This document shows positions 1,492-43,537 of a DNA stretch of 53,460 nucleotides, one piece after another. Below the pieces are notes generated by a model, which made no database searches, was not told where the DNA came from, and saw only the letters and a program-made list of their open reading frames with translations. The first letter of the stretch is position 1. The number at the start of each line of letters is the position of its first letter. The position numbers and the translations under genes were made by a program. This stretch comes from a virus. Lineage: Duplodnaviria > Caudoviricetes. The stretch covers positions 1 to 53,460 of IMG/VR virus record IMGVR_UViG_3300001534_000001, one strand, 5' to 3'.

Positions 1492-4400
1492 TTATTTATT
1501 TTCATGCTCTTTTTTTATTGTCGTTTCAATAGCATTCGCATTAGCTTTTATTGATTTAGCTTTCTTAGCATCATTTCCATGTGGCGACATTAATTGTGGA
1601 GCGGCAATATTCAATATTGATTTTAAAAACCTACCAGATTCATAGTCTTTCTGGTTGTAATCATCATCCAGCGATCCGCTTATTGGATTAGCCATTTCAA
1701 ACATGGGATTAATACCAAATAAACCCTGGGCAAGATTCTCCGGCATCTGCAATCCCGCAGGTGCTGTTTTTGACTTACGCAGGAATGATGGCTCTACCTG
1801 TCCCCTGAAGTTATGTATGCGGCTTAAATAAGGTGCATCTCCGGTAGTTCCGGTAAATGGTATGGAAACCAACGGGGAAGCCGTGTACTGGCTTAAATAG
1901 GTGTTTACAGCTTGTATTTCTGAAGATTCAATAACCTGGCCAATATTACCACCAAGTTTAGCAGTTTCATATCCTTTATATGCCCCAACAGCTTTTAACC
2001 CGCGATCTGCAACAATATTGGTAAACCCTATACTGAAATCATCCCAACTATTTGTGCGCTTGTTGTAATAAAACTTTTTAATGAAAGCATCTTTTTTCCA
2101 TTCTTCAGGAATGGGTACTTTTAACAGTTTTGCATGCGGATCGTCTGATGGCCACTTGCCGGTTACTTCTTTATGGATAAGCATCCAGTAGCCGATAAGC
2201 CCCAAAATACCACCTGTCATTATTTGCGCCAGCTTGTAATAAATAAACTTCCCGGCTTTTCCTGGATCATCAAATCCGCCGCCTCCTTTACTAAAAGGAT
2301 TATCAATTGGCATCTGTGTCATCATAAGCAAGTTCTTTAACCCAGCGCGATAATATGCCCTGGAGAATGTAGCAAACGGCGCAATCCCATTTTCTTTAAT
2401 AAACTTCTCTAACTTACCCTGCAATGACGATGTGTATTGTCCCATATCGGCAAGCATTTTAACGTACTGTTCAGGAGTGGCGTTCGGATTCATTGCCCGT
2501 ACCAGCCGAAACATTGTTACCCTGGCTTTCAGGTCTATCCCGTTCTTACCGTAAAGCAATGGAGAAAAGTCAAGAAATTTACCCTTGTTAAATACCTTTT
2601 TGAAATTACCGGCAAGCAGGTCCTTCCATGGTAAAGGAAATTGTGTCGGTTCAACTCCCATTGATTTTGCAAACTCATGGCTATAGGTATGTGTCCAGGT
2701 CTTTTCAGGAATTAAACCCATTGCAGCCATTTGCTGAACGTCCTGTGCAAATTCATCTGAAGATGGACTGGTAAATAAAACTTTACCCATGGCTCCGAAT
2801 ATTTTAACAATAGGGTTATTCAGCACTAATCCGGCTGCATGACCTAATATGCCATTCTGATAAGCCCATTCCTGCATATAAGGCATTGAGTTGATAATCC
2901 CCGATAATAAGCGGTATGAGTGACCTACGGCCTCCGCAGGGCCACCCAGCATAAAGTTAACCGTGGCGTTCAATATATGCCCGAACGCGGTATAATGGTC
3001 GTGATCTGAAATATCGCCCTCTATTATCGGTTTAATTTCCTGATACAGCCAATTAGGCACAAGCACATATCTTGTTGGTGTATGAATTATCTGGTTGTTT
3101 GTAATAATGGTCCTGGCATCCGCTACAGGTACTTTGGTAGCTTCGTAGGTTACGCCATTGATTGAAATATATTTGTCGCTGCTATCGCCGGAAACATGCG
3201 CTACTAACCCAGCATCATACAATGCCCTGATTGCGGCAGCTTTATTATTGGTTTTAAATGACGCTGATAGCTTCTTAGCCAGCGCTGATATTTCTGAACT
3301 ATACAAATCAGCGCTCCCTTTTGTAAAATGGTTATTTATATTGGCGGGCTCATTGTATTTTGTCTTTGCAGGCATAACAACCTTATGTGCATCCTTTCCA
3401 ACAGGTGACAATGGATAATAAGTATCAAGCGGCCCCAGCGCATCGCTGAATATACCCTCATTGGTAACGTGACTTTCCCTGAATGGTTTTTCGATTAATT
3501 GCTTGTATTGCTGTAAGGATTCCTGATATTTTGGATTAACAAACGATAAATTACCGGTACCATCCGGCTGCGTCATTTCATCAAACGTTTTCCCGTTGGA
3601 TAACTTACCAAAGAAAGAAACGTTGTCAGCTGCATTATCAAACATCTGGCCAAGGTAATCCCGCGCATCGTCATATTCCTGATTATCCAATAATGCCAGT
3701 ATGCTCTGCGCGGGGTTCTCGTCATCATCGTAGCCTTCCAGGTCTTTTATGATAGAATAAACTGCGGATGATTTGCCAGCGTCAAACAAGTCAGATAATT
3801 CAGTATCATCCATCGCCCTGATATCCCTTGCAAAGTTTTGCCACCGTTCCCGTGTACCGCGTAGCCTGCTTTCCATCAATGCTTCGCGCAATACTTTATA
3901 ACCATCTTCGCCGATCAGTTTATTTATTTTATCATTGGATAGTTTAATATTAACATTAGCTTCTGATTTTGAAGCAGCAAAATGAAGCATAGCGCGGAAT
4001 GCCGTCATATCGGTCATATCTTTGCCATAGAATTTAAGTTGCTCAAGGTTACGCACATGAACATCTTTTAACTTGCCCCATAGGCTATAATTCTTTTTAA
4101 CACCATCTGGTTCATCCGGGCTTTCTGATTCCGGCGCATCGATCAACTCCATTGGTATCTTTTCCTTTTTGGGTATCCGACGATTTGGCTCACCATCTTC
4201 CCCCCCGGTAGTTACGGGCGGAGTAACCGGAGGTTTTGGCGGAGGAATAGCGCCGCTTAAATCTGAACTCAACACACCATCCGGGTCCGCAGCCATTACT
4301 GCGGCCACTTCGATGTATTTATGCAATTGCTTTTTGCTTAGGCCAATCAAAGGCAATTTTGCAAATGTTTTTTCATCCGGCGAACTGGCTTTTATTTTTG

Positions 4401-7400
4401 ACTGCAATTCTATGGCCGCTTTCACCAGGTTGGCTTCAGTATCAGTATCGTTGGTATCCGGCGCAGTATGCCTTTGAGGAATAGTAGTTTTTGCCAGCAT
4501 TTCATTAATACTCTGCTCAAAGTCGCTTGCCTGTGCAGTATCGCCGCCCCTATCAATGATATACTTTACTGCTATTCTAACTGCCTTCTGTGTACTGTTG
4601 GTTGCTTTAACCACGTTCTTCAGTATATCAATTGCCCCGTTCCATACAGCCGGAGGTATTGGTACAAGCAACCCCATCATTTGACCACCAGGTTTAGCCT
4701 TTAGCTTATCCATAGCGTCCAGTATCGGCTTAACGTTGCTTTGGTCTAATATTTCATCAATGGCAGGAAGCCGCTCATTTTCGCTTTTTTCTTTTTCAAC
4801 CCCTTCTTCAATCATTAACCCTTTTAAAGTTTCAGACCGTACTTCAAGTTCTTTTAAATGGGTATCGTCGAATTTTTGATCAATATCATGACCAAGTTGC
4901 TCGATATTATTTGTGTTTTGGGATATAAGCGCTTTTGTCTTACCAGGCTTTTCAATAACATCTTCCAATTTTGAACGTAGTGACGATAACAAGCCAACAC
5001 CCTTACCACTCGGAACGGCTATACCTTTGCCTGTATAATAAGGATCTTTTATTCCGAGATCCAGTATGGTATATTCAAGTACCGAACCGCCTAATCCCTC
5101 ATGTAATGACAGTTGAACAGGGACACCGTTTATCTTTATTTCACCAGTGGAATATTTGGTAGGACTTTCCTCATACTTTTTATTCAGCCGGTCTAAATAA
5201 CCATCAACAGCAGCAGGGAACTTTTCGGTAGCTTCCGGCTGGCCACTAACCTCTACTTTCAATATTTCTCCATCAGGGAATGATTTTTCTACTTTGGCTG
5301 CATTAAACTCGTCCTTATTTAAAGCGGCTTTATTGCGGTTCAAATTAGACTGCGCTGATTGTAAGTCGCGTTTCGCCTGGATAACCCTGCCAAAGAAAAT
5401 ATCCTTTTTAGTTTTTTCTCTTTTTATGTTAGCGTCTGTTTTTATTTTTTCAATGGCATATTTGCTCCCGGATAGCCTGGCCATCATTTCATCAAAGGTC
5501 GGCACATCTTCGCCGGCCGCATCATCAATAACGCGCTCAACTGTCCCGGTAGTCATAAGTTGCTTGATGAACTTCTCTTTATTCATCAGAACATTATATG
5601 CCATCGCATCTGCGGTGCCTTCCATGCCGTTGTTTGAAACCTCAACTATTTTATTTTCATTACCAGGCCTTAAAATACGTCCCTCCCTCTGAACCATATC
5701 CGAAGGACGGTTGGGAACGTCAAGATGATGTTCGGCGACTAAGTGTTTTTGAGCATTTACACCTACTCCCATTTTTTCGGTACTCCCAAACACTACACGT
5801 ACCAACCCCTCGTTTACCGCTTCAAACAATGCTTGTTTACGTTCCTGTTTATCATATTTAGGGTCGGTAGCAATAGCTATCTCATTTTCAGGAATCCCGG
5901 CAGCGATTAACTTCTTCTTCATATCCTCAAAAAGATGAAACTGTTTTTTACCGTATGCCGGATTTAAAAACTCCTCATTTTCATCAAGATATTGCCGTTC
6001 GCCTGTCATGCTATTTTGACGATCTGAAAATATCATCTGCGTACCTTTAATAGCTTTGGTATCTGCGTGTTTCTTTACAATTACCTTAATAAGATTATTA
6101 ACCTTACTGTCGGGATGGTCCTGCGCCTCCGGGTTGTACATACGCGGATCAATACTGGCAACCTTAGCGTGCCCATAAAGCACCACCGGGATACTTCTGT
6201 TCCGGCCTAACCGTTTTTCTTGCGAAGATAGATTGCCCCAGGCTTTTAATTGCCTTACGATGCTATCTAAAATTTCCTTTACTGGCGGTGTAAGCGGGAT
6301 TATGTTTTTAGTCTTCTCGCCGTTTAACAATTTAGGAACAGAACCACTGTCGGTTATTTCCTTAACATCATCTTTTAAAACCACATGAGCAATCGACCTG
6401 AAGGCGGTCAATAGTTCAGGAGCATTCTTAAAGCTACGGAACCTGTTTACGTTTTTAAAAGAACCGGTAGCATTAAATTCAATATCATTTGCTATAACGC
6501 CAAATGTATTTACAAACTGGTCAAAATGCGTTATGCCTAATCGCTCAACTAATTCCGGCCTGATAAACCGCATCCATGTCCATACTTCGGCCATGGTATT
6601 GGTGATCGGGGTACCGGTGAAGAAGTTTACATTTTTACCGCCTGTCTTTTCCTGAATATGCCGGGTTTTAAGATAAAGCGATTGAGCCCTCTTTGATGCT
6701 GTCTGGTCAATTCCCTTTATGTTTTGTAGCGAAGTGGTTAGGCCAAGTTTTTTGTAGGCATGGCAATTTGATACTAAGATGCCAGCGGCGAAGTAATTAT
6801 GGTTGTCGGCAACTGTAAGGTCATAAACTCGGTCACTTGGCGAATTACTAAATCCAAATCCTGCGTCACTTGCTCGTTCGTAAACCTCAATACCTTCCAC
6901 CCTAACGCATTCAAAATTTCCGTTTTCCGCCTGTCCAAAAACTTCCATTTCTTCAACCTGTGTGTTTTCCCGTCTACCTCTATAGCTATCATCAGATCGG
7001 GCATACCAATATCCACCTTGTAATGATTTGGCAACGATGGGAATTGTCCCCATACAGGCCTCGTCGCTATCCCCCACTCCATATTGTCCTCCGGCAATCC
7101 CAATGCTTTGCATAGGGTAATTTGCTGCGGGGTTAAAGTCCCATTGCCTCCCCTTGACAAAAATGTTTTCCCCTGCATACTGGCTTTCATTTTTGCTACA
7201 GATTTCGGGTTGCTCATTGGATTGTTTAATTTCATTCTGGCTGACGAACTTGGACTTGGTATCCCCAAAGACTTTTTCCCCAACCAAATTCCGTGAAGTC
7301 TCTTTTGCTCTTGAATATGTGGCAAACTGTTCCGATACTTCGCTGCACAATGTCCCGAACAAAATCTTTTCGACCGTACTTTTACTGGATTTATTTTGCA

Positions 7401-10400
7401 CCATTCGCATATCGGCATTGGATTCAGATTTCTCCCTGTTGGATTGTCCTGTGTGACTTGGGTTGCTTTGTATAGAGACGCACATCTCGTGCTGCAAAAT
7501 ACATACTTCTCCTTTTTGACCGGGACTTTCTGACACCACCTGCAAAGTGGTAAATATAATTCTGTCGTTATTGGTGAGGTCTTTTGCTCGGATGTATCCA
7601 TTTTCGGTTAATATATGGTGGTTGGACGTACATACAAAAGTACCGTATTTATGCCTCACTTTCAACATTTTATTTACAATTGGTTTCCTCAGCCAATTGG
7701 TTATTCTTTTTGTCTCATACGTCCCCGATAATACATTATAGCTTAATACTTGCAAGTCTAATTTTTGCTCAACTATCAGCCCTATTGGTAACCAACCTTT
7801 GGTTGTTAAGACCGGGGTTTCGTAAGGGAAACACTCGTCTAAGATTAAGTTATCAATCCCCATGTCCTCAAAATGCAAGGCCGACCTATCAGTATGACGA
7901 TTTAGCAACCTTTCCATTTTAGCTTCTGTACTCAAAGCCTTTTTAGCCTCATTCTTTACATTTTTACCCTTCTTTTCAATATACTCACCCTTTGCGTTCA
8001 TTTTAAGCGCATCCGGATCATCCACCAGGCGCATCTCGTGATCAAGGTCACGTAGCTTGCTTTCGATAGCTTTTTTATCGGCGCCATTATCAGCCTCGTC
8101 GATGGATTTTTGAAGATTATCTATTTTTTCCTGAATATATGCCTTGCGCCGCTCCGGCTTATCAGGGATCATATCAAATTGAGAATGCGGCATGATGATA
8201 GCATCCCAATCCTGCGTAGAAATTTTCGCATAAAGTTTAGCCCTGTTCTCTGCGGAGAAATCTGCTTCGGATGGCGCCAGTATTTTAGCCGTAGGATACA
8301 TTCTGCGGAAACTGGTAACATATTGCCCCAGCGTTGCTTTCTGTACCACCACCATCGTCTTTTTAGCCAATCCAAGCCTTTTAGCTTCCATGGCCAGGAT
8401 GTGCTGCACGAAGCTCTTACCGAAGCCAACCTCTTGCGCTCCGAGCGTACTTTCAGCAAGCCCCCTGGCTACTGATCTCTTTTGCTCATCGTATAAACTG
8501 ATTGTTTTAGACTGCCCCGGATAATAATCAATATTAGGTGTCTGCCAATTTCGCTCAACAAAATTGTTGTAGATTTTATTATATATCGGTTCGGTAATAT
8601 CCTGTGCCTCTTTATTTGACCGCATGAAAGTCACAAACTCATCCTCGATCTGCGCTTGCCTTTCCCTTGCTTCTTCAGTTGCATGAGCATCAATACCACC
8701 GCCGTCTGCTTTTGGCATACTAACGGTTGTCTGAATGTTATTTAAAGCGTTTTCTAACAGCCGTACACCATCAACACCACCACCTGCATAGGTGGTTCTA
8801 TTCCTTGAATCATGCAGGCCATAACTTGAAGCAATATCCCATTTAGCAAGGGCCTCTTTATATTTTATTGTTGAATCAACTCCTAAAAGTGATTTAACAA
8901 AATCTTCATAAATAGCAGGGGGAACCCAGGTTGAACCAAGTGAATATTGAATAAGTGATGCTGGTATATCTTTTGGAATAACTTTTTCAAGTTCAGCTAC
9001 GTTCCTATTAAACTTTTCATCAGTTTCAACAGCCGCTTTAGCCTGATCCAGTTTGTCACGCACATAGCCAGACAAGTATTCTTCCGGGCTTTCCAATAAA
9101 CCTGTATTCGGATTTTCAAAGGCAAGGTTTTCGTTTATTAACGTATTTTTAACATCAGCTACCGGCTGACCTAACAGTTTTGAAATATAATTCAGGTCAA
9201 GGCCGTTTCTGTAATTAAATGAAATATTTATAGCATCCTTAATATTTTCTGCTGCATCCGGTTCGGTACGGGGAAAGTTTATCCGCTTTTTAAATAATGC
9301 TGATTTTTTTATTTCGGTAACTTTTTTACCACCTCCCTTACCATCATCTACAAATTTATCCTTTGCTTCCTCTAACGATTGAACCAAAGGATAGTCAACG
9401 TCATCTTCAAGAAACTTTATTGCCCTATTTTTATGCAGGGCTTTATTCTTTTCAACAAAAGCATCGTATTCTTTATTTAATTCTTTTCGGAGGGCCTCAA
9501 TATTAGCTTCTGCATTTACCGGAGATAATTCCTGCTTGATCAATTCAAGCAACGTGGTTTTAAGTGCGATATATGCTTTGGCTATTTTTACCTCGGCAGG
9601 CTTTTCATTATACTTAGCTACTCCCTCACCATCCCTCACCATATAAATCTTACCGCCCTTTTCAAACATGCTGCCCTCTTTTTTGTCAATGGCCTCTACA
9701 GTTTCCTCAACAGGCTTTTCAACCTGTGCTGATTGTTCCTGCTGCATAATATCAGATGGGAAAGACTTGATAGCTTTATTTAAGTTTGAGATAACGTTGT
9801 ACCCCGATGGCGCATGTAACGTGGCATCCTTACCTCCATATAAGCCGCCTGATCCAGCTTCATCGGCTGTCATCATCTTACCAAGCATATTTTCAGGATG
9901 CTGATGATAATATTCATTTACATTTATAGGTACCTGGTTGCCCTCTTTATCAAAATGCTTTTCTTCTATTGGATAGGTGTACCTAAACTCATTCTCCAGT
10001 GGATTAATTTTATTATTATCCCGTTTACGGAATACTACAATATCAGTCGTAACCTGTGTGCCTGCGTTCTCTGAAAATGCGTTATTTGGTAGCCTCACAG
10101 CCCCCACAAGCACGCTATTGCCACCGTCCGGGCTTGACATCCATTCGCGGAATTTTGGGTCGCCATCAAGCGTGCTTTTCGATGTGATAACCATTGCAAC
10201 ACCGCCAGGCTTTAACAACCGCATACTTTTACCGATAAAGTAATTGTGCATGTTGAATTTGGAGATGTCAGGATAGTTTTTATCGAATGGCGCTTTCTGT
10301 GCAAATGGCACATTACCGATAACAAGGTCCTGGCTATTGGGCTGCACGTTTGATTTTTCAAAACCTGACACGGTTATCTTAGCTTCCGGGTAAAGTTTTT

Positions 10401-13400
10401 TAAGCATACGCCCGGTGATACTGTCGAGCTCATAGCCGGTTAGCTTTGTGCTGTCACGCAGGTCTTTCGGCATCAGGCCAAAGAAGTTTCCTATACCGGC
10501 AGATGTTTCCAGCGTATTCCCACCTTTAAAGCCCAACTGCTTTGCCAGTTCCCACATTTTATTGATAACCTGGCGTTCGGTATAGTTCGCGTTGATAGTT
10601 GAGTTTTTAGCCGCATTCAATTCATCATTGGTAAACAATGAGCTAACCAATGATTTGCGCACTTCATCTATACCGATTGGATAACCTGAATTATTTAGCT
10701 TATTCTTTATCTCATTGGCAAGTTCGCTGAATGAGGAATAAGAAGGTGCGTTAATGGGCCCGTCTTTTGAAAAGTCCAAAATTTTATTATCCCACCGGTT
10801 AAGGCGCACCACTTCGCGCTTCCCGGCTATGGCCGCATTTACAGCCTGCTCATTGGAGTATTCACCGCCTTTAAGGTATTCAGCCAAGCCCCCCCACCCG
10901 ACAAATTGTGCCAGTACCTTCTTTTCTTCCGGGGATGGGTTACGGTCTTCACTTTCCAGTTTTTTAAGCAGGAAAATGGCATCCATGTTTTTGTTGAACT
11001 TTTCAATAGGGGAGCCTTCACCTATTTCATCATCCTGCCGGATATAGTGATTTTGATCTTCAGGCTTTAAACTACGCTTTTCAGTATTTTTTGGTACTCC
11101 TGATCCGGCATTTTTGGAACGTCCTCCCTGTCTGTCAGGTCCACTTCCGGTGCCAGCAGGGCTTCCGTTATCATCGCTTCCACCTGGTCGTACTTCAGGG
11201 ACGGTTTGTTTTCCATGATCTGCATTTCCATTTTCACCGCTGTTGTTGTCAGGTCGTCCAGGTACTTCTTCAGTTTGTTTTCCTGGTACAGCATTTGCAG
11301 CCTTTCCGGGTAATTGTCCCGCAGGAATTGAAGGTGTATTTCCTTCCACTCGCTGTCGTTCATTGTCTGTTCCATTTTCTTTCTTGGTTATATAATCCTC
11401 AAATTTTGCTTTACGTACTTCTTTGAGGTTGGTCATGGCCTCTATTTCTTCATCGGTAGCATCTGCGCTGGTGGCAAATGCTCCGTATGCGGCTTTTAAT
11501 CCATCAAAAACTTCGCCAGCTTTTTCACCGAGATCTTCGTACAGGTCTTTAACTATCTCTCCAAAGTCGTGTATGCCTATTTTAGCGTAGATGGCCAGTA
11601 GTTTGATACCTTTCTCAATGGTTTCTGGATTAATGCCGGACATGGCCTTATTGAAGGTGTCCATAAAGGCTTTCTTTGCCTTTTTAAGCTCATCTTCGTA
11701 TTGGGCACGCTTGGACTGCTTTTCGGACTTCGGTTCTTCTTTTGGCTGCTCCGGTTCAGGAGCCTTTTCATCGGTAGTTTTAAAATCATCCTCGCGTGGC
11801 TGTAATCCAACCGTTACGCCTTGCCGGGTCGGGATGATATTTACTTTTTCCTGACTGAATATGCCATTACCCTCATCTTTAGCGCGAACACCATGCTCAT
11901 TTTCGTACAAATCCTTTCCTGCGGCATTTGTACCGACATGGGTATAAGGTGTGCGGTCTTTACCAAGCGTAATAACAGAGGGCGATTCTTTTGATGGTTG
12001 CGGTAACCCGGCATTAGCCAGTTCTTTGTCAACTTCATCAATAGATGCGTCTATTTCATTAATGACCCCTGCTGACTTGGCACTTCCTCTTGTTGTAGCC
12101 TTTGCTTTTCCAACTGTAACTGTCGCTTTAGCGATAACAGCTTCAGTATTTTCGGTATCGGTGTTTTCACCTTCGGGTTTGATTGTTCCTCGTGGGGATT
12201 TAAGGCCAGATTCATAAGATTGATCTATTTTTGCCTGCAACTCTGCTGGCGTTAGTTTTGATAAATTACGTTTATATGCTTCAATAGCATCTTCTTTGGT
12301 TTTTCCTTTTCCTAAAGATAGTCCGGTAGAACCCTCTGTGACACCATATCCGTCAGTACCATGAAGTTTATGAGTAAAAACATCTAATTTATAGTTGTTT
12401 TTTAAATTCAATGGTTCACCCTCTACCTGAACATATTCAGGTTTTTCGGCAGTCCCCATGGAAACATAGTACGGATTTTCGGCTACTTTTTGGTCATTAC
12501 CTTGTACTTGCCCGGCTTCATTTTTGGCTGCACTTTCTCCGGCAGGGACTTCTGATCGGTTTTCGCTGCCCAATCCTTCGCCCATGGCTGATGATTCGCG
12601 AATGCCCACTTTTCCTGTGCTTTGCTCTGAAATGGCATTTGTTGGTTCCTCCTTATTTGTTAATGTATAAAAATATTCTTTAGCCCTGAACGGAACTTTC
12701 CAACCGCTTTCCCTGGCATCAAGCTGTAATTGTCCGTTCTTATCAATTTGCCTAATCGTAGCAATATCTTGGCCTGTTTGACTTTTTGCAGTGATTAATG
12801 CAATATTGTTCCCGTCTTTATCAACATGCTGATCAAATATTTTAGCTGTCCCCTTTTTTATTGGCTCTATCGATTGATCGGGAGATAAAAATTTATTAAC
12901 ATCAGTTGTTTCGGTTTCTGCAACTACCGGCTTATTTTCAACAGTTTTATTAACTGGCGCAATAGCTTTTCCCGCGCCTGCTGTTTCATCTGCCGGTTGT
13001 TGAGCAGATATCTCCGTATTTGTTTTGGCTTGTTCATTTTTAGGTATAGTTGCTTTGATTATTCTATCAGGATTAGCGGCCACAACCTCGTCCAGCTTTT
13101 CAGCGTTGGTTTGGGCTGGTGCCTGCTGCTGTTTAAACGCATCCAGTTCATTATCCAGGTCATCAAGCTGTGAAGCATCAACCGCTGGTGATGCAGCTAC
13201 AGGCGCAGGTGGATTAGGCTGTACTGATTCAGCAGGCGCAGCTATTTGAGCGGCTCGTTTCTTTTCCTGTTCTTTCTCGTAATCTTCAAGATCAGCCCTG
13301 TCCTTTGTTATCTCAATCGGTTCCTCGCCGTTCTGCTGCTTCCAAAACTTACCTTCCTTCTCAAAATAACGGAATGACTTATCTGTAGCCAATTCGGTCA

Positions 13401-14838
13401 ATTGATCATTAGCCTGCTCAATCTTAGCCGTTACCAGGTTCTTTAAACCCTCTACCTTTGGCTGCATTGCCGGATCAATACCTGATTCATTATTTGCAAT
13501 ACCTTCCTGTACACCTTCCAATTGCCGCCTACCCAATATCAAGCTAACTGCGGCATTGAATTTATTTGGCTGCAAACCCTTTGGTATTGAATTAACCACA
13601 TCTGCGATTTCATCGACCTTTCCTTGTGTGTGTAAAATATCAGTAGCGCTCCATCCTTTTTGTTTCCCAATATTACCTAACTGAACTTTTATTGCCTGAA
13701 CTGTTTGTGGTGAACCATCCTTTTGCAAAACATCTACCACCGGATTAAGATATGGCGACTTATCGTACAGCATACCATCCGTAGAGGCCGCGTGTAGCAA
13801 TGAAAACCCAGCGGCAGGGGTATTTATCATATTTAAGGCAAATTGCCCTAATGAGCCGTTAGCTGGTGTGCTGTCATTGTAAACTGGTGAGGAAATATCC
13901 TTTACAATTTCATCACCGGTAACACCTGGAAAAGGTGCCTTATTATTTAAAGCATTAACACCTGCCTTTAAAGCACTCCTGGCAAGATTAGCCCCGGCGA
14001 AGTCAAGCGCAATATTAGGATATGCTTTTAAATATCCCAAACCAACCTGTCCAAACTTTTGAGAAAAGGATAATGTTTTGGCAAGGGCCTGCTGGCTGTA
14101 ATATTGTGAAATATCATCAGCCGTAGCATTTGCCGGTAAATCAGCAAGTGATCTTGTAGCATCAGCGGCTAATGAAGCGGTAACCTCATTCACAAGCGGC
14201 TGTCCCCCTACTTTACTTAATATTGTGCCGGTTACTGATTTACCTAAAGCGTAGCTGATAAGGCCGCTCCCATAAATCATCAACCTGTCTGTGCCATTAT
14301 CAAACTTAACTCCCTGTGCTTTTAGGTTATCAACGGTTCTTGACATATTGCCAACGGCCTGTAACCCCATGATCTTTGCGCCCTGTGATTCACCCCCCAA
14401 TAGCATGGGTATCATTTTACCTACAGATGCGGCAGAACTATTATTTATAAAATCCTGATTATATCCAAGGTTAGCGCCTTGGTCATACTTTGCCAAAGCA
14501 TCCATTTCGCCCTGCTGTATGTTTTGTTCATGGCCCGGATCAATAAAGCCAGCCTTAACACCCAAATCACCAATATCTGAATGTACTTGTTTTAATGCGT
14601 GTAACCCTTCACCAACGGCGTTCAATACACCAGCGTCAAACGGAATAACAACGTTTCTTACATGATCTGAAAAAGAGGGCTCACCTGCGGCAACCCTATC
14701 CGGCTTTTGTTGCGGGATATTGCCTACATTCTTATCTGCGTTTAGAATATTATTAGCATTTGGATCATAGATAGGAATTAACCCTGATTTAGCATCCGAC
14801 TCTGATTGCTGTTTGGTGTAAACAGGAGGGGACGGCAT
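1492..14838 (-). CDS. Giant polyvalent virion cargo protein with DarB-like N6-adenine DNA methyltransferase and SNF2-type helicase; intein-containing
   Basis: 4448 aa. Pre-methylase motif NMDAIFLLKKLESEDRNPSPEEKKVLAQFVGWGGL; SAM-binding LETSAGIGNFFG; motif IV IGNVPF; Walker A-like QEVGFGKS; Walker B ILDE^CH split by an intein; TGTPITN; helicase C motifs GSTEKMGVGVNAQ and QREGRILRPGN. Follows ejection-protein-like genes. Confidence 0.85.
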   Translation of the reverse strand: MPSPPVYTKQQSESDAKSGLIPIYDPNANNILNADKNVGNIPQQKPDRVAAGEPSFSDHVRNVVIPFDAGVLNAVGEGLHALKQVHSDIGDLGVKAGFIDPGHEQNIQQGEMDALAKYDQGANLGYNQDFINNSSAASVGKMIPMLLGGESQGAKIMGLQAVGNMSRTVDNLKAQGVKFDNGTDRLMIYGSGLISYALGKSVTGTILSKVGGQPLVNEVTASLAADATRSLADLPANATADDISQYYSQQALAKTLSFSQKFGQVGLGYLKAYPNIALDFAGANLARSALKAGVNALNNKAPFPGVTGDEIVKDISSPVYNDSTPANGSLGQFALNMINTPAAGFSLLHAASTDGMLYDKSPYLNPVVDVLQKDGSPQTVQAIKVQLGNIGKQKGWSATDILHTQGKVDEIADVVNSIPKGLQPNKFNAAVSLILGRRQLEGVQEGIANNESGIDPAMQPKVEGLKNLVTAKIEQANDQLTELATDKSFRYFEKEGKFWKQQNGEEPIEITKDRADLEDYEKEQEKKRAAQIAAPAESVQPNPPAPVAASPAVDASQLDDLDNELDAFKQQQAPAQTNAEKLDEVVAANPDRIIKATIPKNEQAKTNTEISAQQPADETAGAGKAIAPVNKTVENKPVVAETETTDVNKFLSPDQSIEPIKKGTAKIFDQHVDKDGNNIALITAKSQTGQDIATIRQIDKNGQLQLDARESGWKVPFRAKEYFYTLTNKEEPTNAISEQSTGKVGIRESSAMGEGLGSENRSEVPAGESAAKNEAGQVQGNDQKVAENPYYVSMGTAEKPEYVQVEGEPLNLKNNYKLDVFTHKLHGTDGYGVTEGSTGLSLGKGKTKEDAIEAYKRNLSKLTPAELQAKIDQSYESGLKSPRGTIKPEGENTDTENTEAVIAKATVTVGKAKATTRGSAKSAGVINEIDASIDEVDKELANAGLPQPSKESPSVITLGKDRTPYTHVGTNAAGKDLYENEHGVRAKDEGNGIFSQEKVNIIPTRQGVTVGLQPREDDFKTTDEKAPEPEQPKEEPKSEKQSKRAQYEDELKKAKKAFMDTFNKAMSGINPETIEKGIKLLAIYAKIGIHDFGEIVKDLYEDLGEKAGEVFDGLKAAYGAFATSADATDEEIEAMTNLKEVRKAKFEDYITKKENGTDNERQRVEGNTPSIPAGQLPGKAANAVPGKQTEEVPGRPDNNSGENGNADHGKQTVPEVRPGGSDDNGSPAGTGSGPDRQGGRSKNAGSGVPKNTEKRSLKPEDQNHYIRQDDEIGEGSPIEKFNKNMDAIFLLKKLESEDRNPSPEEKKVLAQFVGWGGLAEYLKGGEYSNEQAVNAAIAGKREVVRLNRWDNKILDFSKDGPINAPSYSSFSELANEIKNKLNNSGYPIGIDEVRKSLVSSLFTNDELNAAKNSTINANYTERQVINKMWELAKQLGFKGGNTLETSAGIGNFFGLMPKDLRDSTKLTGYELDSITGRMLKKLYPEAKITVSGFEKSNVQPNSQDLVIGNVPFAQKAPFDKNYPDISKFNMHNYFIGKSMRLLKPGGVAMVITSKSTLDGDPKFREWMSSPDGGNSVLVGAVRLPNNAFSENAGTQVTTDIVVFRKRDNNKINPLENEFRYTYPIEEKHFDKEGNQVPINVNEYYHQHPENMLGKMMTADEAGSGGLYGGKDATLHAPSGYNVISNLNKAIKSFPSDIMQQEQSAQVEKPVEETVEAIDKKEGSMFEKGGKIYMVRDGEGVAKYNEKPAEVKIAKAYIALKTTLLELIKQELSPVNAEANIEALRKELNKEYDAFVEKNKALHKNRAIKFLEDDVDYPLVQSLEEAKDKFVDDGKGGGKKVTEIKKSALFKKRINFPRTEPDAAENIKDAINISFNYRNGLDLNYISKLLGQPVADVKNTLINENLAFENPNTGLLESPEEYLSGYVRDKLDQAKAAVETDEKFNRNVAELEKVIPKDIPASLIQYSLGSTWVPPAIYEDFVKSLLGVDSTIKYKEALAKWDIASSYGLHDSRNRTTYAGGGVDGVRLLENALNNIQTTVSMPKADGGGIDAHATEEARERQAQIEDEFVTFMRSNKEAQDITEPIYNKIYNNFVERNWQTPNIDYYPGQSKTISLYDEQKRSVARGLAESTLGAQEVGFGKSFVQHILAMEAKRLGLAKKTMVVVQKATLGQYVTSFRRMYPTAKILAPSEADFSAENRAKLYAKISTQDWDAIIMPHSQFDMIPDKPERRKAYIQEKIDNLQKSIDEADNGADKKAIESKLRDLDHEMRLVDDPDALKMNAKGEYIEKKGKNVKNEAKKALSTEAKMERLLNRHTDRSALHFEDMGIDNLILDECFPYETPVLTTKGWLPIGLIVEQKLDLQVLSYNVLSGTYETKRITNWLRKPIVNKMLKVRHKYGTFVCTSNHHILTENGYIRAKDLTNNDRIIFTTLQVVSESPGQKGEVCILQHEMCVSIQSNPSHTGQSNREKSESNADMRMVQNKSSKSTVEKILFGTLCSEVSEQFATYSRAKETSRNLVGEKVFGDTKSKFVSQNEIKQSNEQPEICSKNESQYAGENIFVKGRQWDFNPAANYPMQSIGIAGGQYGVGDSDEACMGTIPIVAKSLQGGYWYARSDDSYRGRRENTQVEEMEVFGQAENGNFECVRVEGIEVYERASDAGFGFSNSPSDRVYDLTVADNHNYFAAGILVSNCHAYKKLGLTTSLQNIKGIDQTASKRAQSLYLKTRHIQEKTGGKNVNFFTGTPITNTMAEVWTWMRFIRPELVERLGITHFDQFVNTFGVIANDIEFNATGSFKNVNRFRSFKNAPELLTAFRSIAHVVLKDDVKEITDSGSVPKLLNGEKTKNIIPLTPPVKEILDSIVRQLKAWGNLSSQEKRLGRNRSIPVVLYGHAKVASIDPRMYNPEAQDHPDSKVNNLIKVIVKKHADTKAIKGTQMIFSDRQNSMTGERQYLDENEEFLNPAYGKKQFHLFEDMKKKLIAAGIPENEIAIATDPKYDKQERKQALFEAVNEGLVRVVFGSTEKMGVGVNAQKHLVAEHHLDVPNRPSDMVQREGRILRPGNENKIVEVSNNGMEGTADAMAYNVLMNKEKFIKQLMTTGTVERVIDDAAGEDVPTFDEMMARLSGSKYAIEKIKTDANIKREKTKKDIFFGRVIQAKRDLQSAQSNLNRNKAALNKDEFNAAKVEKSFPDGEILKVEVSGQPEATEKFPAAVDGYLDRLNKKYEESPTKYSTGEIKINGVPVQLSLHEGLGGSVLEYTILDLGIKDPYYTGKGIAVPSGKGVGLLSSLRSKLEDVIEKPGKTKALISQNTNNIEQLGHDIDQKFDDTHLKELEVRSETLKGLMIEEGVEKEKSENERLPAIDEILDQSNVKPILDAMDKLKAKPGGQMMGLLVPIPPAVWNGAIDILKNVVKATNSTQKAVRIAVKYIIDRGGDTAQASDFEQSINEMLAKTTIPQRHTAPDTNDTDTEANLVKAAIELQSKIKASSPDEKTFAKLPLIGLSKKQLHKYIEVAAVMAADPDGVLSSDLSGAIPPPKPPVTPPVTTGGEDGEPNRRIPKKEKIPMELIDAPESESPDEPDGVKKNYSLWGKLKDVHVRNLEQLKFYGKDMTDMTAFRAMLHFAASKSEANVNIKLSNDKINKLIGEDGYKVLREALMESRLRGTRERWQNFARDIRAMDDTELSDLFDAGKSSAVYSIIKDLEGYDDDENPAQSILALLDNQEYDDARDYLGQMFDNAADNVSFFGKLSNGKTFDEMTQPDGTGNLSFVNPKYQESLQQYKQLIEKPFRESHVTNEGIFSDALGPLDTYYPLSPVGKDAHKVVMPAKTKYNEPANINNHFTKGSADLYSSEISALAKKLSASFKTNNKAAAIRALYDAGLVAHVSGDSSDKYISINGVTYEATKVPVADARTIITNNQIIHTPTRYVLVPNWLYQEIKPIIEGDISDHDHYTAFGHILNATVNFMLGGPAEAVGHSYRLLSGIINSMPYMQEWAYQNGILGHAAGLVLNNPIVKIFGAMGKVLFTSPSSDEFAQDVQQMAAMGLIPEKTWTHTYSHEFAKSMGVEPTQFPLPWKDLLAGNFKKVFNKGKFLDFSPLLYGKNGIDLKARVTMFRLVRAMNPNATPEQYVKMLADMGQYTSSLQGKLEKFIKENGIAPFATFSRAYYRAGLKNLLMMTQMPIDNPFSKGGGGFDDPGKAGKFIYYKLAQIMTGGILGLIGYWMLIHKEVTGKWPSDDPHAKLLKVPIPEEWKKDAFIKKFYYNKRTNSWDDFSIGFTNIVADRGLKAVGAYKGYETAKLGGNIGQVIESSEIQAVNTYLSQYTASPLVSIPFTGTTGDAPYLSRIHNFRGQVEPSFLRKSKTAPAGLQMPENLAQGLFGINPMFEMANPISGSLDDDYNQKDYESGRFLKSILNIAAPQLMSPHGNDAKKAKSIKANANAIETTIKKEHENK
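6766..7833 (-). mobile_element. Intein (356 aa) inserted in the helicase DExH motif
   Basis: Starts CFPYETPVLT (block A); block B CTSNHHILT; ends VYDLTVADNHNYFAAGILVSN followed by extein Cys. Removal restores LILDE-CHAYK. Penultimate residue is Ser, not His. Confidence 0.92.
6774..7601 (-). CDS. Out-of-frame endonuclease nested in the intein: two CxxC/FCSxxC Zn motifs plus DUF559/Vsr-like PD-(D/E)xK domain
   Basis: 275 aa in the +1 frame relative to the host ORF. CRWC..FCSTRC, CEWC..FCSGHC, then YKVDIGMPDLMIAIEVDGKTH...ILNALGWKVLRFTNEQV. Confidence 0.85.
   Translation of the reverse strand: MDTSEQKTSPITTELYLPLCRWCQKVPVKKEKYVFCSTRCASLYKATQVTQDNPTGRNLNPMPICEWCKINPVKVRSKRFCSGHCAAKYRNSLPHIQEQKRLHGIWLGKKSLGIPSPSSSARMKLNNPMSNPKSVAKMKASMQGKTFLSRGGNGTLTPQQITLCKALGLPEDNMEWGIATRPVWGQFPSLPNHYKVDIGMPDLMIAIEVDGKTHRLKKWKFLDRRKTEILNALGWKVLRFTNEQVTQDLDLVIRQVTEFMTLQLPTTIITSPLAS
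11067..11375 (-). CDS. Overprinted (+1 frame) TnpV-like small protein inside the giant gene
   Basis: 102 aa. WKEIHLQFLRDNYPERLQMLYQENKLKKYLDDLTTTA resembles the TnpV pattern (W...HL.YL.E..P..Y..L...G.L..YL). The host frame here is low-complexity G/P/N/R-rich. A-rich sequence precedes the ATG. Confidence 0.65.
   Translation of the reverse strand: MEQTMNDSEWKEIHLQFLRDNYPERLQMLYQENKLKKYLDDLTTTAVKMEMQIMENKPSLKYDQVEAMITEALLAPEVDLTDREDVPKMPDQEYQKILKSVV
12483..12638 (-). CDS. Overprinted (+1 frame) 51-aa basic peptide MPFQSKAQEKWAFANHQPWAKDWAAKTDQKSLPEKV...
   Basis: Manual translation. TAAGGAGG (complement of 12648-12655) lies 9 nt before the ATG. Resembles short phage proteins beginning MPFKSKAQ (my recognition, unverified). 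Confidence 0.65.
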   Translation of the reverse strand: MPFQSKAQEKWAFANHQPWAKDWAAKTDQKSLPEKVQPKMKPGKYKVMTKK

Positions 14839-17084: not shown

Positions 17085-17795
17085 CTATATATGTCCCGCT
17101 GAAGGTAAAGGATTTCCATTTGCATCAAATCGGGGAGTGCCATCAGGAAAGGTTGCGTCACTCGTGCCAAAACCCTGCGCTATTCCTGTACCGTTCCCGG
17201 TTTTGCCGCCGTTATTCTTAGTGGTAGCTGCCCCATCGCCCACCTTCGAAAACGCATACTTTGCACCAAGCGCCGAAAGTGAATCAATGGCGCCGTAGGT
17301 GTTTGTCGCCCCGGCCTGTGTTAATGCCGCTTTCTCTCTTAACGCCTGGTCGTACTGCTGACGCTCCCATTCATTCTGATTTTGATATTGCTGGCCAGCC
17401 GACGCATTGCCGTTAAGATACTCGCCCAAAATACTTTGTTTGCCCTGCGCGCCCTGTACAGCCAATTGGTTATTTGCCTCGTTTTTTCCGTAAGCCATCT
17501 TTGTGGCAAGCCCTAAAATATCATTGCCGGATGTAGCGCCCCTTGCACCGTTATTAAAAGCATTGGAAAAGTTTGTATTTATATTTCCCTGAACGGCTGA
17601 ATAGCCGGGGAGTTGGTAGTTACCGTATTGCTGGCTTAATGTCCGGGCATTGTCCAATACGCCATAATTAACCTGATATCCTGGGTTCATAGGTTTAAGC
17701 CTGTTAGCCTGCGCCTGTTGGTCAGCCCCCTGTATTCCTTTATAAGCAGCGGCACCTGCTGATACCACTGTGCCCACAACCATCGCCCAAGCCAC
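17085..17795 (-). CDS. Putative ejection/pilot protein
   Basis: 236 aa; hydrophobic G/A-rich N-terminus followed by Q/N/A/G-rich helical sequence, typical of podovirus internal proteins. Confidence 0.6.
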   Translation of the reverse strand: MAWAMVVGTVVSAGAAAYKGIQGADQQAQANRLKPMNPGYQVNYGVLDNARTLSQQYGNYQLPGYSAVQGNINTNFSNAFNNGARGATSGNDILGLATKMAYGKNEANNQLAVQGAQGKQSILGEYLNGNASAGQQYQNQNEWERQQYDQALREKAALTQAGATNTYGAIDSLSALGAKYAFSKVGDGAATTKNNGGKTGNGTGIAQGFGTSDATFPDGTPRFDANGNPLPSAGHI

Positions 17796-18250
17796 TAATT
17801 ACCTCCTTGTATTAATTTTAAATTCGTATATGGTTCAATTATGCTACGCTCTATCTTTGCCACTGCTTCTTCTATAGCTTCCTTACTGTTATTCTTCGGC
17901 TTTATTCTTGTCGGATGGATATTAAACCAAACCATATTTTCCAATGCTATGCCCATTCTCCGGGTACCTGGTAACGTTATCCCATCGTATGAAGCCTGTA
18001 GTATCACCGCCTCATGCACTCCGTCATAAACCAATATCCTACCGCCTGATACAATAAATGCGCTTTCAGTCTTATGTATCTTGCTGGTTAAAATCGCTCC
18101 TTTTGGCAAGATCATTTTACGAATATAAACACCAGGCGCAAATATATGCTCAATTTTAACGTCAACCGGGGGCAACTGTGATATAAAAACCTCCGCATTA
18201 TCCATGAAGGCGTTTATAATTTCGGTATCGGTTGGTTGAATCAGTTCCAT
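17795..18250 (-). CDS. Cupin-fold phage protein
   Basis: HIFAPGVYIRKMILPKGAILTSKIHKTESAFIVSGG cupin-like pattern. ATG 18250 preferred because a TACATTTG box lies at 18260-18267. Confidence 0.65.
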   Translation of the reverse strand: MELIQPTDTEIINAFMDNAEVFISQLPPVDVKIEHIFAPGVYIRKMILPKGAILTSKIHKTESAFIVSGGRILVYDGVHEAVILQASYDGITLPGTRRMGIALENMVWFNIHPTRIKPKNNSKEAIEEAVAKIERSIIEPYTNLKLIQGGN

Positions 18251-29208: not shown

Positions 29209-30369
29209 TTAATGGTTAATAATTAAACTATTACTTCCTGTTTCAATGGGTTCGTAACCTACACCCTCCACAGGCACACCGGGTATTTTTAGCCCTGCAT
29301 TTCTTATATTTATTGCCGCATTTATGTCCCTGTCAATAGAAAAACCGCAACAATCACATTTATATACTCGTTCAGATAATAAAAGAATTTCTTTTATGTT
29401 TCCACAATTGGAACAGGTTTTACTTGACGGGAAAAAGGCTCCTACTTTTATTAGTTTCCTACCATACCAGGCCGCTTTATATTCAAGTTGATTAATCAAA
29501 ATATCCCAACTTGCATCGGAAATACTTCGTGCCACTTTGTGGTTTTTCATCATGTTTTGAATTTTTAGCGTTTCAATGACAATCGTTTGGTTCTCACGGA
29601 TTAGTTCGTTGGTTACCTGGTGATAGTAGTGTTCTCTTTGTCTAAATGATTTACGATATAATTTCGCTGTTTTGATGCGAAGTTTCTCACGGTTTTTGCC
29701 TCCTTTTTTTGATTTAGCAAATTTTCTTTTTATTTTTTTAAGTTTAAATTCAGAATTGATAAGGTATTTATTATTTGGGAATGTTACGCCATTAGAAGTA
29801 ATAATCAAATTTTTCAAACCGAGATCAATACCCAAAACATTATTAGTAAGTGATGGTAGCTTTACCGCTTCAGTTTTAATCAGGCAGGTTGCCCAATAAT
29901 CACCCGATTTGTCTTTTTTAAATGTAATTGTCCTTATTTCATTCGTATCCAACAACTTCATATAAAAGTCAGATGTTTTATATTTTATTGTGTTGCCATA
30001 AAATTTAATTTTACTGTCTTTGGATGATAGGCTTTGGTGGGCAAAAAAGGAATTATATTGTTTTTTACTTTTATATCGCGGATACCCCTTTCCGCTAAAA
30101 AAAAACTTAAAAGCAGCATCTAATTTCAAAGCTACCTCTCTTATACATTCAGCCTTACATTCTTTCAAAAAAGGAGTTTCTTTTCTTATTTCAAATAATT
30201 CTTTTTGTAATTGATAAGCTGTAATATTTATTTTATAATCATTCCACAACCATGTTTTATATTGAAGGCATAAATTATAACAAAACCTATAAGCGTTAAG
30301 GTGTTTTTCAAGCACCTCTTTTTGCTTAACAGTTGGGTATAATTTAACTTTTATCCTTTTAAAAACCAT
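29209..30369 (-). CDS. tnpB: IS200/IS605-family RNA-guided endonuclease TnpB (solo, no TnpA)
   Basis: N-terminal KVKLYPT...RFCYN; RuvC-I LGIDLG; RuvC-II IVIETL; Zn ribbon CSNCG...CDCCG; RuvC-III DRDINAAINI. Confidence 0.95.
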   Translation of the reverse strand: MVFKRIKVKLYPTVKQKEVLEKHLNAYRFCYNLCLQYKTWLWNDYKINITAYQLQKELFEIRKETPFLKECKAECIREVALKLDAAFKFFFSGKGYPRYKSKKQYNSFFAHQSLSSKDSKIKFYGNTIKYKTSDFYMKLLDTNEIRTITFKKDKSGDYWATCLIKTEAVKLPSLTNNVLGIDLGLKNLIITSNGVTFPNNKYLINSEFKLKKIKRKFAKSKKGGKNREKLRIKTAKLYRKSFRQREHYYHQVTNELIRENQTIVIETLKIQNMMKNHKVARSISDASWDILINQLEYKAAWYGRKLIKVGAFFPSSKTCSNCGNIKEILLLSERVYKCDCCGFSIDRDINAAINIRNAGLKIPGVPVEGVGYEPIETGSNSLIINH

Positions 30370-35477: not shown

Positions 35478-35843
35478 TTAGGCAACCAATAATTTTTCTT
35501 CATGTCGCCTATTATATGTCGCTCTACGGTGGCAATTTGCGCACCTAACGTCACATTTTTCAATTTCTTCTTTTATTTTTACAAGTGAGTGTCCGGTTTT
35601 TCTAACCATATCAGAAATGTTGAAACTTTTTTCTCCTCTTACATGGTCAAATTCTAAAACAATAGGATCTGATTCTCCGCAATCAACACAATTATTTTCA
35701 GAAAGATATTTATTAACGTAAGTTGTATGAAATATTCGTGTATTTCTCTTATGAATTATAGACCGTTCTATCACCTTAATTTTATTGTTCTCATAATGTT
35801 TTTTTGCAGATGCTGATTGGTCTTTCTTATTTTTATACGGCAT
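35478..35843 (-). CDS. HNH endonuclease
   Basis: CVDCGESDPIVLEFDHVRG...KCDVRCANCHRRAT; likely start MPYKNKK at 35843. Confidence 0.9.
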   Translation of the reverse strand: MPYKNKKDQSASAKKHYENNKIKVIERSIIHKRNTRIFHTTYVNKYLSENNCVDCGESDPIVLEFDHVRGEKSFNISDMVRKTGHSLVKIKEEIEKCDVRCANCHRRATYNRRHEEKLLVA

Positions 35844-35865
35844 AATCACTGTTTTAATTATATAT

Positions 35866-35891
35866 CGAGCTACCAACTGCTCTACCCTGCG
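35866..35891 (-). pseudogene. 5' fragment of an initiator tRNA-Met-like gene (acceptor 5' strand plus D-arm)
   Basis: CGCAGGGTAGAGCAGTTGGTAGCTCG closely matches the 5' end of bacterial tRNA-fMet; no anticodon or T-arm follows. Confidence 0.7.
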
Positions 35892-43287: not shown

Positions 43288-43537
43288 AATTAGTAATTCT
43301 CCTTATTTTCGTGTACGTATCGTCAAACTCAAAGGGGTAGCCAGCGTCGATGAAGCCCTTCACCGTCTCGCTGATCTTCTCGAAGTCTGCTCGGTTGTCA
43401 ATTCGAAACCATTCAAACTTAGCCATCGTCAGCAAAACATCAAGCAACTTTTGCTCGAAGGTTTTATCCTGGTAAAAATCGGGCTTATTAGAACGGAAGG
43501 TCTTTGCTGTCTTCTTCATTTGATGAAATAAATTCAA
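43280..43537 (-). CDS. Hypothetical protein
   Basis: 85 aa overlapping the dnaB 3' end; FEFDDTYTKIRR C-terminus. Confidence 0.55.
   Translation of the reverse strand: MNLFHQMKKTAKTFRSNKPDFYQDKTFEQKLLDVLLTMAKFEWFRIDNRADFEKISETVKGFIDAGYPFEFDDTYTKIRRITNFE

Follow-up and report, generated by a model that had tools for sequence, protein, structure and literature searches.

A conserved small phage gene that appears to be nested in the +1 frame of a giant multidomain gene

The small phage gene Rz1 lies in the +1 frame of Rz. The two-component spanin genes Rz/Rz1 of lambda and its relatives occur in embedded, overlapped and separated architectures, according to the part of the literature on them that was available to us (PMC6139136). 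Here we describe a same-strand overlap of the embedded kind in a phage genome recorded as IMGVR_UViG_3300001534_000001, a single contig of 53,460 bp that constitutes the whole assembly and the whole stretch of DNA analyzed (hereafter the window). A gene of 51 codons plus a stop (12638..12483, minus strand), encoding a basic member of the MPFxSKAQ family of small proteins (phrog_1375), lies inside a giant gene on the same strand (1492..14838, minus strand) whose product is a 4,448-aa multidomain phage protein, putatively of the polyvalent type. On comparative grounds, the interval 12483..12638 is very probably a true coding gene that occupies the +1 frame of the giant gene, and one stretch of DNA appears to encode two proteins.

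The locus resembles Rz/Rz1 in that a small gene lies wholly inside a larger gene of the same strand with both frames intact, an arrangement that held in each of the 40 embedded copies assembled here, all of them in the +1 frame and none with a host-frame stop. It differs from Rz/Rz1 in several respects. The predicted nested protein has no signal peptide, lipobox, cysteine or hydrophobic N-terminus, and because it lacks the first three it is not an o-spanin; its gene sits in the head and virion block, with terminase, portal and virion genes as neighbors, rather than in a lysis cassette; it has several unrelated host genes instead of a single dedicated partner; and members of its family are also known as N-terminal domains of in-frame fusions. 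Judged by analogy, Rz/Rz1 is nevertheless the closest known case in architecture, and we regard the present locus as a real, conserved nested gene whose same-strand embedded overlap is known in kind and whose nesting variant is new. None of the overlapping-gene papers listed by a general search described this nesting, and a literature search did not find the MPFKSKAQ motif.

An earlier note on this DNA, made from the letters alone, had described a hidden 51-aa open reading frame (ORF) in the +1 frame of the giant ORF, preceded by a perfect Shine-Dalgarno (SD) sequence and nine nucleotides, with the host frame reading as a linker. The ORF was recovered as described, on the minus strand and with the same peptide (MPFQSKAQEKWAFANHQPWAKDWAAKTDQKSLPEKVQPKMKPGKYKVMTKK): it runs from an ATG at 12638..12636 to a TAG at 12485..12483, and its offset from the host start, (14838-12638) mod 3 = 1, places it in the +1 frame. 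Coordinates and translation also bore out the linker, since the dual-coding segment of the host ORF (12483..12660, minus strand) reads in frame 0 as an acidic, glycine-rich linker (...KEEPTNAISEQSTGKVGIRESSAMGEGLGSENRSEVPAGESAAKNEAGQVQGNDQK...), the host frame across the nested gene being ...TNKEEPTNAISEQSTGKVGIRESSAMGEGLG... (also given as ...KEEPTNAISEQSTGKVGIRESS...). The SD-like octamer TAAGGAGG is present at 12655..12648 (minus strand), 9 nt 5' of the nested ATG with the spacer AACCAACAA, and in the host frame it falls within the codons AAT AAG GAG GAA (Asn-Lys-Glu-Glu).

Neither the octamer nor the length of the ORF exceeds chance. The window contained one TAAGGAGG against 1.24 expected, at least one copy was present in 68 of 100 shuffles, and AGGAGG was under-represented (9 vs 14.3 expected). 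The stop-free +1 run that contains the nested ORF spans ~58 codons, and other such runs in the giant ORF measured 277, 106, 99, 78, 69 and 60. It is homology that sets the nested ORF above chance. Its protein matched the PHROG profiles phrog_1375 (E = 5.5e-7, residues 3-28) and phrog_5320 (E = 9.1e-5), families that PHROG lists without function and with whose standalone members the N-terminal motif, length and basic tail agree; a PHROG search of five other +1-frame ORFs in the same linker gave no match (0/5) at E <= 0.01. These five ORFs, 34-102 aa long and located at 11067-12764 (minus strand) in ~1.7 kb of Glu/Lys-rich linker, are most likely compositional; one gave a sub-threshold TnpV match (E = 7.9e-4, 19.8 bits, cut-off 27). 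The nested gene is the sole copy of its family in this genome, the runner-up in a six-frame search having E = 1.5.

The earlier note had pointed to small phage proteins with MPFKSKAQ-type starts, and these do exist. A phmmer search returned 103 clusters at E <= 1e-3, mostly of 40-90 aa and matching within the first ~40 residues (top short match P0006, 47 aa, E = 4.4e-11), and 203 of 600 listed stretches from a viral-contig scan with at least 600 pattern matches encode a relative. The best 80 of these 203 were retained; 78 of the 80 start with MPF.SK.Q and the other two with MSPF.... Standalone homologues, for which the note had proposed a search, were found in P0003 and P0004 (44 and 71 aa), both 72% identical to the nested protein. 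In an alignment of 50 members S5, Q8 and A20 were invariant and M1, P2, F3, F13, W23, T27, L32 and P33 were at least 90% conserved; the nested protein has every one of these residues and, at 51 aa, lies within the 40-60 aa of the family. Taken across the sequences compared, the MPFxSKAQ family is shown to be an old and widespread group of predicted phage proteins of that size. Its members share the N-terminal MPFxSKAQ, a two-helix core of ~30 aa with conserved aromatics, an LPE motif and a disordered Lys/Arg tail.

An AlphaFold2 model computed from the 50-member alignment had a mean predicted local distance difference test (pLDDT) score of 84, exceeding 90 for residues 1-30; residues 6-14 and 20-26 are helical in it, and confidence is low in the basic tail. 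Foldseek found no match for the model in PDB, a PDB sequence search with the family profile gave nothing meaningful, and a Foldseek search of BFVD returned only uncharacterized phage proteins of 44-60 aa (41-47% identity, probability 1.00, E just 0.013-0.046). A Pfam search of the nested protein gave no match at E <= 10. DUF3008 (PF11450), an Atlas lead with a score of 0.86, was rejected because none of the 50 family members matched it at E <= 1. The family also forms the extreme N-terminal domain of long proteins, 30 of 32 long matches beginning with it and L007 and L009 doing likewise; its in-frame fusion partners include an InPase domain (P0093, E = 6.5e-45) and DUF5661. Pfam had no family for any of ten long fusion proteins, whose PHROG matches were confined to phrog_1375 or a single unknown PHROG, and two of the long fusions, P0096 and P0028, had no match in GenBank phages.

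The nesting recurs. In 41 of the best 80 loci the small ORF is covered by an open frame of the same strand that spans 250 codons or more; of these 41 we set aside L013, L051 and L055 (terminal overlaps) and L037 (a +2 frame merely starting at the small gene). The resulting 37 IMG/VR loci, together with the window, gp20 of Flavobacterium phage vB_FspP_elemoC and the giant gene of MW202828, made up the 40 embedded copies. The earlier note had suggested asking whether NAIxEQS-type linkers in other giant phage proteins hide the same ORF; they do, and always in the +1 frame (40/40). The host-frame motif [N/D/H/Y]A[V/I]..S..E..VR was present in all 40 copies, and the host ORFs, with the overlap masked, fell into at least 8 clusters that have no BLAST similarity to one another.

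Searches of GenBank phages by tblastn with the nested protein and with the small protein of L047 found nothing, and only a family member of the L027 type retrieved the Flavobacterium elemo phages. The elemoC record is one of 68 elemo-phage records that matched; its gp20 protein has 3,694 aa and carries the annotation 'structural protein', and the MW202828 host protein has 3,859 aa; the nested ORF is unannotated in both feature tables examined (NC_062743 and MW202828). The nested proteins of the elemo phage (L081 9001-9129) and of MW202828 (L082 9001-9132) have two cysteines (…KACY…KWDCKKW…) that are absent from the window copy. A literature search for the elemo phage name returned only unrelated virome papers. 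The sole retrievable homologue of the window's own host ORF was P0108, a partial protein of 919 aa whose source name is a Mucilaginibacter metagenome-assembled genome; it is 47% identical to the N-terminal domain of the host protein and carries the host-frame motif (NDAIQKQGPGEVGVRQSPAVGE) at the matching junction (...EEPNDAIQKQGPGEVGVRQSPAVGE..., NDAIQKQGPGEVGVR). No DNA of host-ORF relatives was present in the viral, genome or metagenome contigs searched.

Substitutions among the embedded copies followed the nested frame. Pairwise differences among the window and its six closest embedded relatives numbered 88/87/268 at nested codon positions 1/2/3, each comparison against the window contributing 3-6/3-7/16-21. 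The host-frame entropy at codon positions 1, 2 and 3 (h1/h2/h3) in the giant host family was 1.31/1.20/1.64 upstream of the overlap, 0.89/0.58/0.54 within it and 1.02/0.96/1.46 downstream, and in a second host family, of ~400 aa, the corresponding values were 0.63/0.46/0.78, 0.48/0.27/0.23 and 0.52/0.26/0.65; both the entropies and the difference counts ignore phylogeny and are inflated by the kinship of the sequences. The host wobble signature vanishes exactly over the small ORF, where a nested-frame signature is seen instead, and it is back on both sides. In the 40 embedded copies the host codon that supplies the 'AT' of the nested ATG was GAT in 23, AAT in 15, TAT in 1 and CAT in 1; because the host residue thus varies among N, D, H and Y, these counts point to the ATG and not to that residue as the thing constrained.

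Codon use differed between the embedded and the standalone state. A stop in the host frame or its equivalent occurred in 0 of 40 embedded vs 20 of 35 standalone copies. T occupied 3% of nested third positions in embedded copies vs 15% in standalone ones, and where a pyrimidine-ending codon stood before AA, AG or GA, T was used in 0 of 162 embedded cases vs 98 of 235 standalone cases. G made up 55% of nested third positions in embedded copies, a bias that enriches Glu, Asp, Gly, Ala and Val in the host frame. Comparison of the copies shows the predicted nested protein to be under purifying selection and the host frame across the overlap to be kept merely open and hydrophilic, and by these codon counts host-frame stops are removed by synonymous recoding. 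The locus is like the overprinted viral genes described in the accessible part of PMC8227390 in that two proteins are read from one stretch, with one frame conserved and the other biased and disordered. It is unlike them in that the short nested frame is here ancient and widespread and the long host frame young and poorly conserved, and nothing points to de novo birth of the small protein.

We propose that the small gene is the older partner and that the host linker frame came to run across it. In the +1 phase every host-frame stop (TAA, TAG or TGA) begins at a nested wobble position, and a change of NNT to NNC is always silent, so that any gene could be made readable through in this phase with its protein unchanged, which would explain why only +1 is seen. 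The conserved ATG, set in an A-rich part of the giant mRNA that lacks structure, would then serve ribosomes as an internal start, and a free 6-kDa protein would result. The 20 nt upstream of embedded starts are 56% A, and the start region of the window copy is unstructured (minimum free energy -4 kcal/mol over 70 nt, z +1.06), with no more structure than shuffled sequence. These two properties make internal initiation plausible, and the nested gene is most likely translated from its own start.

For this phage a Bacteroidota host is plausible, on indirect grounds, given the relatives of its terminase, which is closest to Cellulophaga and Maribacter phages (identity just 22%), and the source name of P0108; a transposase-like gene was uninformative on the host (33-38% identity to unrelated bacteria). 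Ribosomes of Bacteroidia are blind to the SD, starts being chosen by upstream adenines, with the exception of rpsU, which is read by ribosomes without bS21, as reported in the available parts of four papers (PMC7797042, PMC9976891, PMC13000453, PMC13000457). The weight that the earlier note had placed on the SD is not borne out: the octamer occurs at chance frequency, the closest embedded relatives lack it and carry A-rich leaders instead, for example ...ACAGAAGAAA-ATG, and an SD-like 4-mer preceded the start in 8 of 39 embedded copies vs 5 of 39 and 2 of 39 in two upstream control windows (9 of 34 in standalone copies). The note's suggestion of foreign origin or special translational control likewise found no comparative support, the motif not being conserved. 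Since, in addition, SD-like motifs precede only 2 of the 34 listed genes of this phage, the function of TAAGGAGG is uncertain; it may aid initiation in this phage or be a by-product of Lys-Glu-Glu codons, and in the comparison made here the perfect SD is peculiar to this phage. Apart from it, just two SD-like motifs precede listed ORFs, AGGAGG at 17802-17807 (minus strand), ahead of a GTG at 17795, and AGGAG at about 43290-43310 (minus strand), ahead of a TTG at 43287; both starts are non-ATG and uncertain.

The SD-like motif also enters a different account, in which the small ORF is an arm of a programmed frameshift rather than a free protein, either because ribosomes that start at the nested ATG slip by -1 in the Lys-rich tail and make a tagged C-terminal product, or because ribosomes on the giant frame slip by +1 and make a truncated N-terminal product. 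Such a fused product would be biologically sensible, the family being so frequently an in-frame N-terminal domain (the 30 of 32 long matches above); the tails are indeed Lys-rich, and an internal SD-like motif recalls the stimulators of frameshifting, as at F. johnsoniae prfB in the accessible portion of PMC10798248. We nonetheless consider this account improbable. Slippery heptamers of the form X_XXY_YYZ occurred in 8 of 40 embedded vs 16 of 39 standalone copies, at positions that are not conserved, and the window has none; the ATG is kept in every embedded copy though the host residue over it varies; standalone copies also close with the basic tail and a stop, and no frame lies beyond for a shift to enter; and the 9 nt between SD and ATG are the spacing expected of initiation.

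Expression of the nested gene can be set against the opposite supposition, that a once-independent small gene was swallowed when its neighbors fused and persists unexpressed as a fossil whose intactness is residual. Two host families, each sampled through a region other than the small ORF, bear on it. The giant host family was collected through its conserved C-terminal region (40 loci, mostly 51-58% identical), and a family ORF lay upstream in 34 of the 40, always in the +1 frame. Of these ORFs 32 had a Met start by the start pattern inside the host's open frame, and L174 and L192 had a Met before PFKNQAQ in the peptide. Among the 6 loci lacking it, 4 end at a contig edge, and L205 and L206 (32% identity) are truly without it. 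The ~400-aa family, whose gene directly follows that of the portal, was collected through its C-terminal 286 aa (68-100% identical), and the nested ORF was present in 26 of 78 assessable loci out of 80, in every case in the +1 frame and with a Met start. The fossil account can point to the absence of the gene from the other 52 of these 78 close relatives and from L205 and L206. It is, however, hard to reconcile with an ORF intact with its Met in 34 of 40 giant-family loci, because at that divergence an unselected 50-codon ORF would not survive, or with substitution biased to third positions within the nested state and a sole family copy in the genome, and we hold it to be improbable as well. 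The contrast between 34/40 and 26/78 suggests that one host family retains the nested gene stably, whereas in the other it behaves as an exchangeable cassette.

A further observation concerns the same place in the ~400-aa family. At 43 of the 78 loci of L083-L162 another +1 ORF, MKLKK..LTT.EWLQSLKMPTP.KNKKKYNRK.KHKKLQY, is found in relatives that lack the MPFxSKAQ ORF (for example L094 1313-1432, L109 1295-1414 and L160 1325-1444). Its own-frame entropy was 0.29/0.31/0.70 vs 0.99/1.44/1.06 for a control region read in +1, and the host-frame signature flips across it too. Atlas leads for it were weak (recognition 2082; scores of 0.94 to unnamed clusters of 42-45 aa), and it may represent another family of small basic proteins encoded by nested genes.

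A third account makes the small ORF a shadow of something else, selection acting on the peptide of the host frame ([N/D]A[V/I]QEQS..E..VR) or on a signal in the RNA or DNA. The host-frame motif does recur as much as the small ORF, and the overlap is less variable overall than its flanks, as would be expected of any conserved element. Against this, the overlap is least variable at the host wobble and most variable at the host first codon position, host residues swap across dissimilar amino acids (N/D/H/Y) as the nested wobble permits, standalone members have stops in the host-equivalent frame (the 20 of 35 above), and the RNA near the start is no more structured than shuffled sequence; we judge this account very improbable. 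Finally, an artefact, whether an indel that displaced a domain from the host frame or an open frame arising by chance in purine-rich linker DNA, can be dismissed: although the +1 frame is compositionally open in Glu/Lys-rich linkers and five other +1 ORFs lie within 1.7 kb, contigs of two runs, X1 and X2, span 12000-13200 without indels (depths about 50 and 250-1,000), so that the frame offset is not an assembly indel, the +1 offset is identical in all 40 embedded copies, and homology was significant for the nested ORF vs none of its five +1 neighbors.

Several points weigh against our reading of the locus as a translated gene with a role in the virion, beyond the inflation by kinship of the counts given above. 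The host-equivalent frame is also open in 15 of 35 'standalone' copies, so the split between embedded and standalone is not clean, and the absence of the nested gene from 52 of 78 close relatives implies that it is dispensable or replaceable in the ~400-aa family. The SD is not conserved and in a Bacteroidia host would probably go unread. The function is inferential, with no PDB match by sequence or fold. The host ORF, moreover, showed no BLAST similarity (E <= 1e-3) to elemoC gp20 or to the MW202828 giant protein, so that its virion location is deduced solely from gene order and domain content.

That gene order is as follows. The phage genes of the window include a DnaB-like helicase, a large terminase (phrog_6681) and a 1,394-aa protein matching phrog_14478 (virion structural), whose gene shares a same-strand block with the host gene, and an 844-aa protein is homologous (E = 5e-23) to a portal protein (phrog_6547, E = 1.8e-154); PDB sequence searches with the portal-like protein and with a 512-aa protein gave nothing meaningful. 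The host protein itself is predicted to begin with a domain of unknown function, which the linker joins to an Eco57I-type methylase region and an SNF2-like helicase interrupted by an intein. In Pfam, Eco57I scored 26.4 bits, above its cut-off of 25.3, and SNF2-rel_dom (17.2), Helicase_C (17.1) and Intein_splicing (33.3, cut-off 35.8) remained below theirs. Elsewhere, in L016 and L018, the major head protein (phrog_9953) is encoded two genes downstream of a standalone copy, the small gene of L047 is nested in a gene between the portal (phrog_6547) and a virion structural protein, and in L010, L020 and L026 the small gene directly follows a gene of ~1,900-2,000 aa.

This neighborhood and the N-terminal fusions, including that to InPase, a domain typical of virion-packaged polyvalent proteins in the available part of PMC5512222, favor a head-associated role. 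We suggest, tentatively, that the nested protein may act in head assembly or inside the virion, or as a packaging module for virion-delivered effectors, although the chances are rather against it. On this view a component of the head would bind the helical hairpin, and DNA, or else acidic proteins of the scaffold or ejection type, would be touched by the basic tail; gene neighborhood is the one reason for considering the portal or scaffold as a partner. In these respects the MPFxSKAQ module is like the MuF-type head-anchoring modules described in the accessible portion of PMC5512222, being N-terminal on unrelated proteins, one of them with InPase, and encoded in or beside giant multidomain phage proteins. 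It is unlike MuF in that no relation of sequence or fold was found, and an anchoring role for it would be by inference; the portion of PMC5512222 available to us made no mention of 'overlapping' or 'frameshift'. More speculative still, and in our view doubtful, is a general scheme in which MPFxSKAQ is a head-targeting or packaging adaptor of tailed phages at large, out-of-frame nesting in linkers is a recurrent route by which neighboring virion genes fuse into giant polyvalent proteins with the small gene kept, silent T-to-C changes in the old gene open that route by erasing the stops of the new frame in this one phase, and such 'read-through capture' is general and overlooked.

The intein in the helicase region of the host protein (window about 6766-7776, minus strand; residues 2355-2691) shows its intein/extein junction motifs, ...DECFPYETPV... 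and ...ILVSNC..., in the host translation, and it contains a second nested ORF of the giant gene. This ORF (6774-7601, minus strand; 275 codons from an ATG, +1 frame) accounts for the longest +1 stop-free run of the giant ORF (277 codons, the next being 106), with the intein frame open throughout. It has a DUF559 endonuclease-like domain (Pfam E = 1e-11, 45.1 bits, cut-off 20.6) and zinc-ribbon-like repeats that match HNH-endonuclease PHROGs, and has the look of a gene for a homing-type endonuclease that the intein hosts in another frame. The portal-like gene is separated from the next gene of the head block by an HNH endonuclease gene (35478-35876, minus strand; phrog_2255, E = 2.7e-26), and a transposase-family gene (29209-30369, minus strand; 386 aa; phrog_506, E = 1.6e-106) lies in mid-genome. 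Together with the intein, these two genes indicate several selfish elements in the genome. Were the general scheme above correct, the giant ORF would carry at least two passengers, the nested gene and the DUF559 endonuclease gene in the +1 frame of the intein.

Gene callers discard ORFs nested in longer ORFs, and the nested gene is probably hidden in hundreds of metagenomic phage contigs. For double-stranded DNA phages the locus is a clean example, comparatively well supported, of dual coding on the same strand maintained over the long term, one in which the usual polarity is reversed, with an old small gene under a young host frame, and it suggests a simple code-based rule for which overlap phase can evolve. 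Phage isolates exist, and a single-base change of ATG to ACG would remove the nested start while leaving the host codon silent (NAT to NAC). If the nested protein proves to be head-targeting or DNA-binding, it would shed light on how capsids come to be loaded with giant effector proteins.

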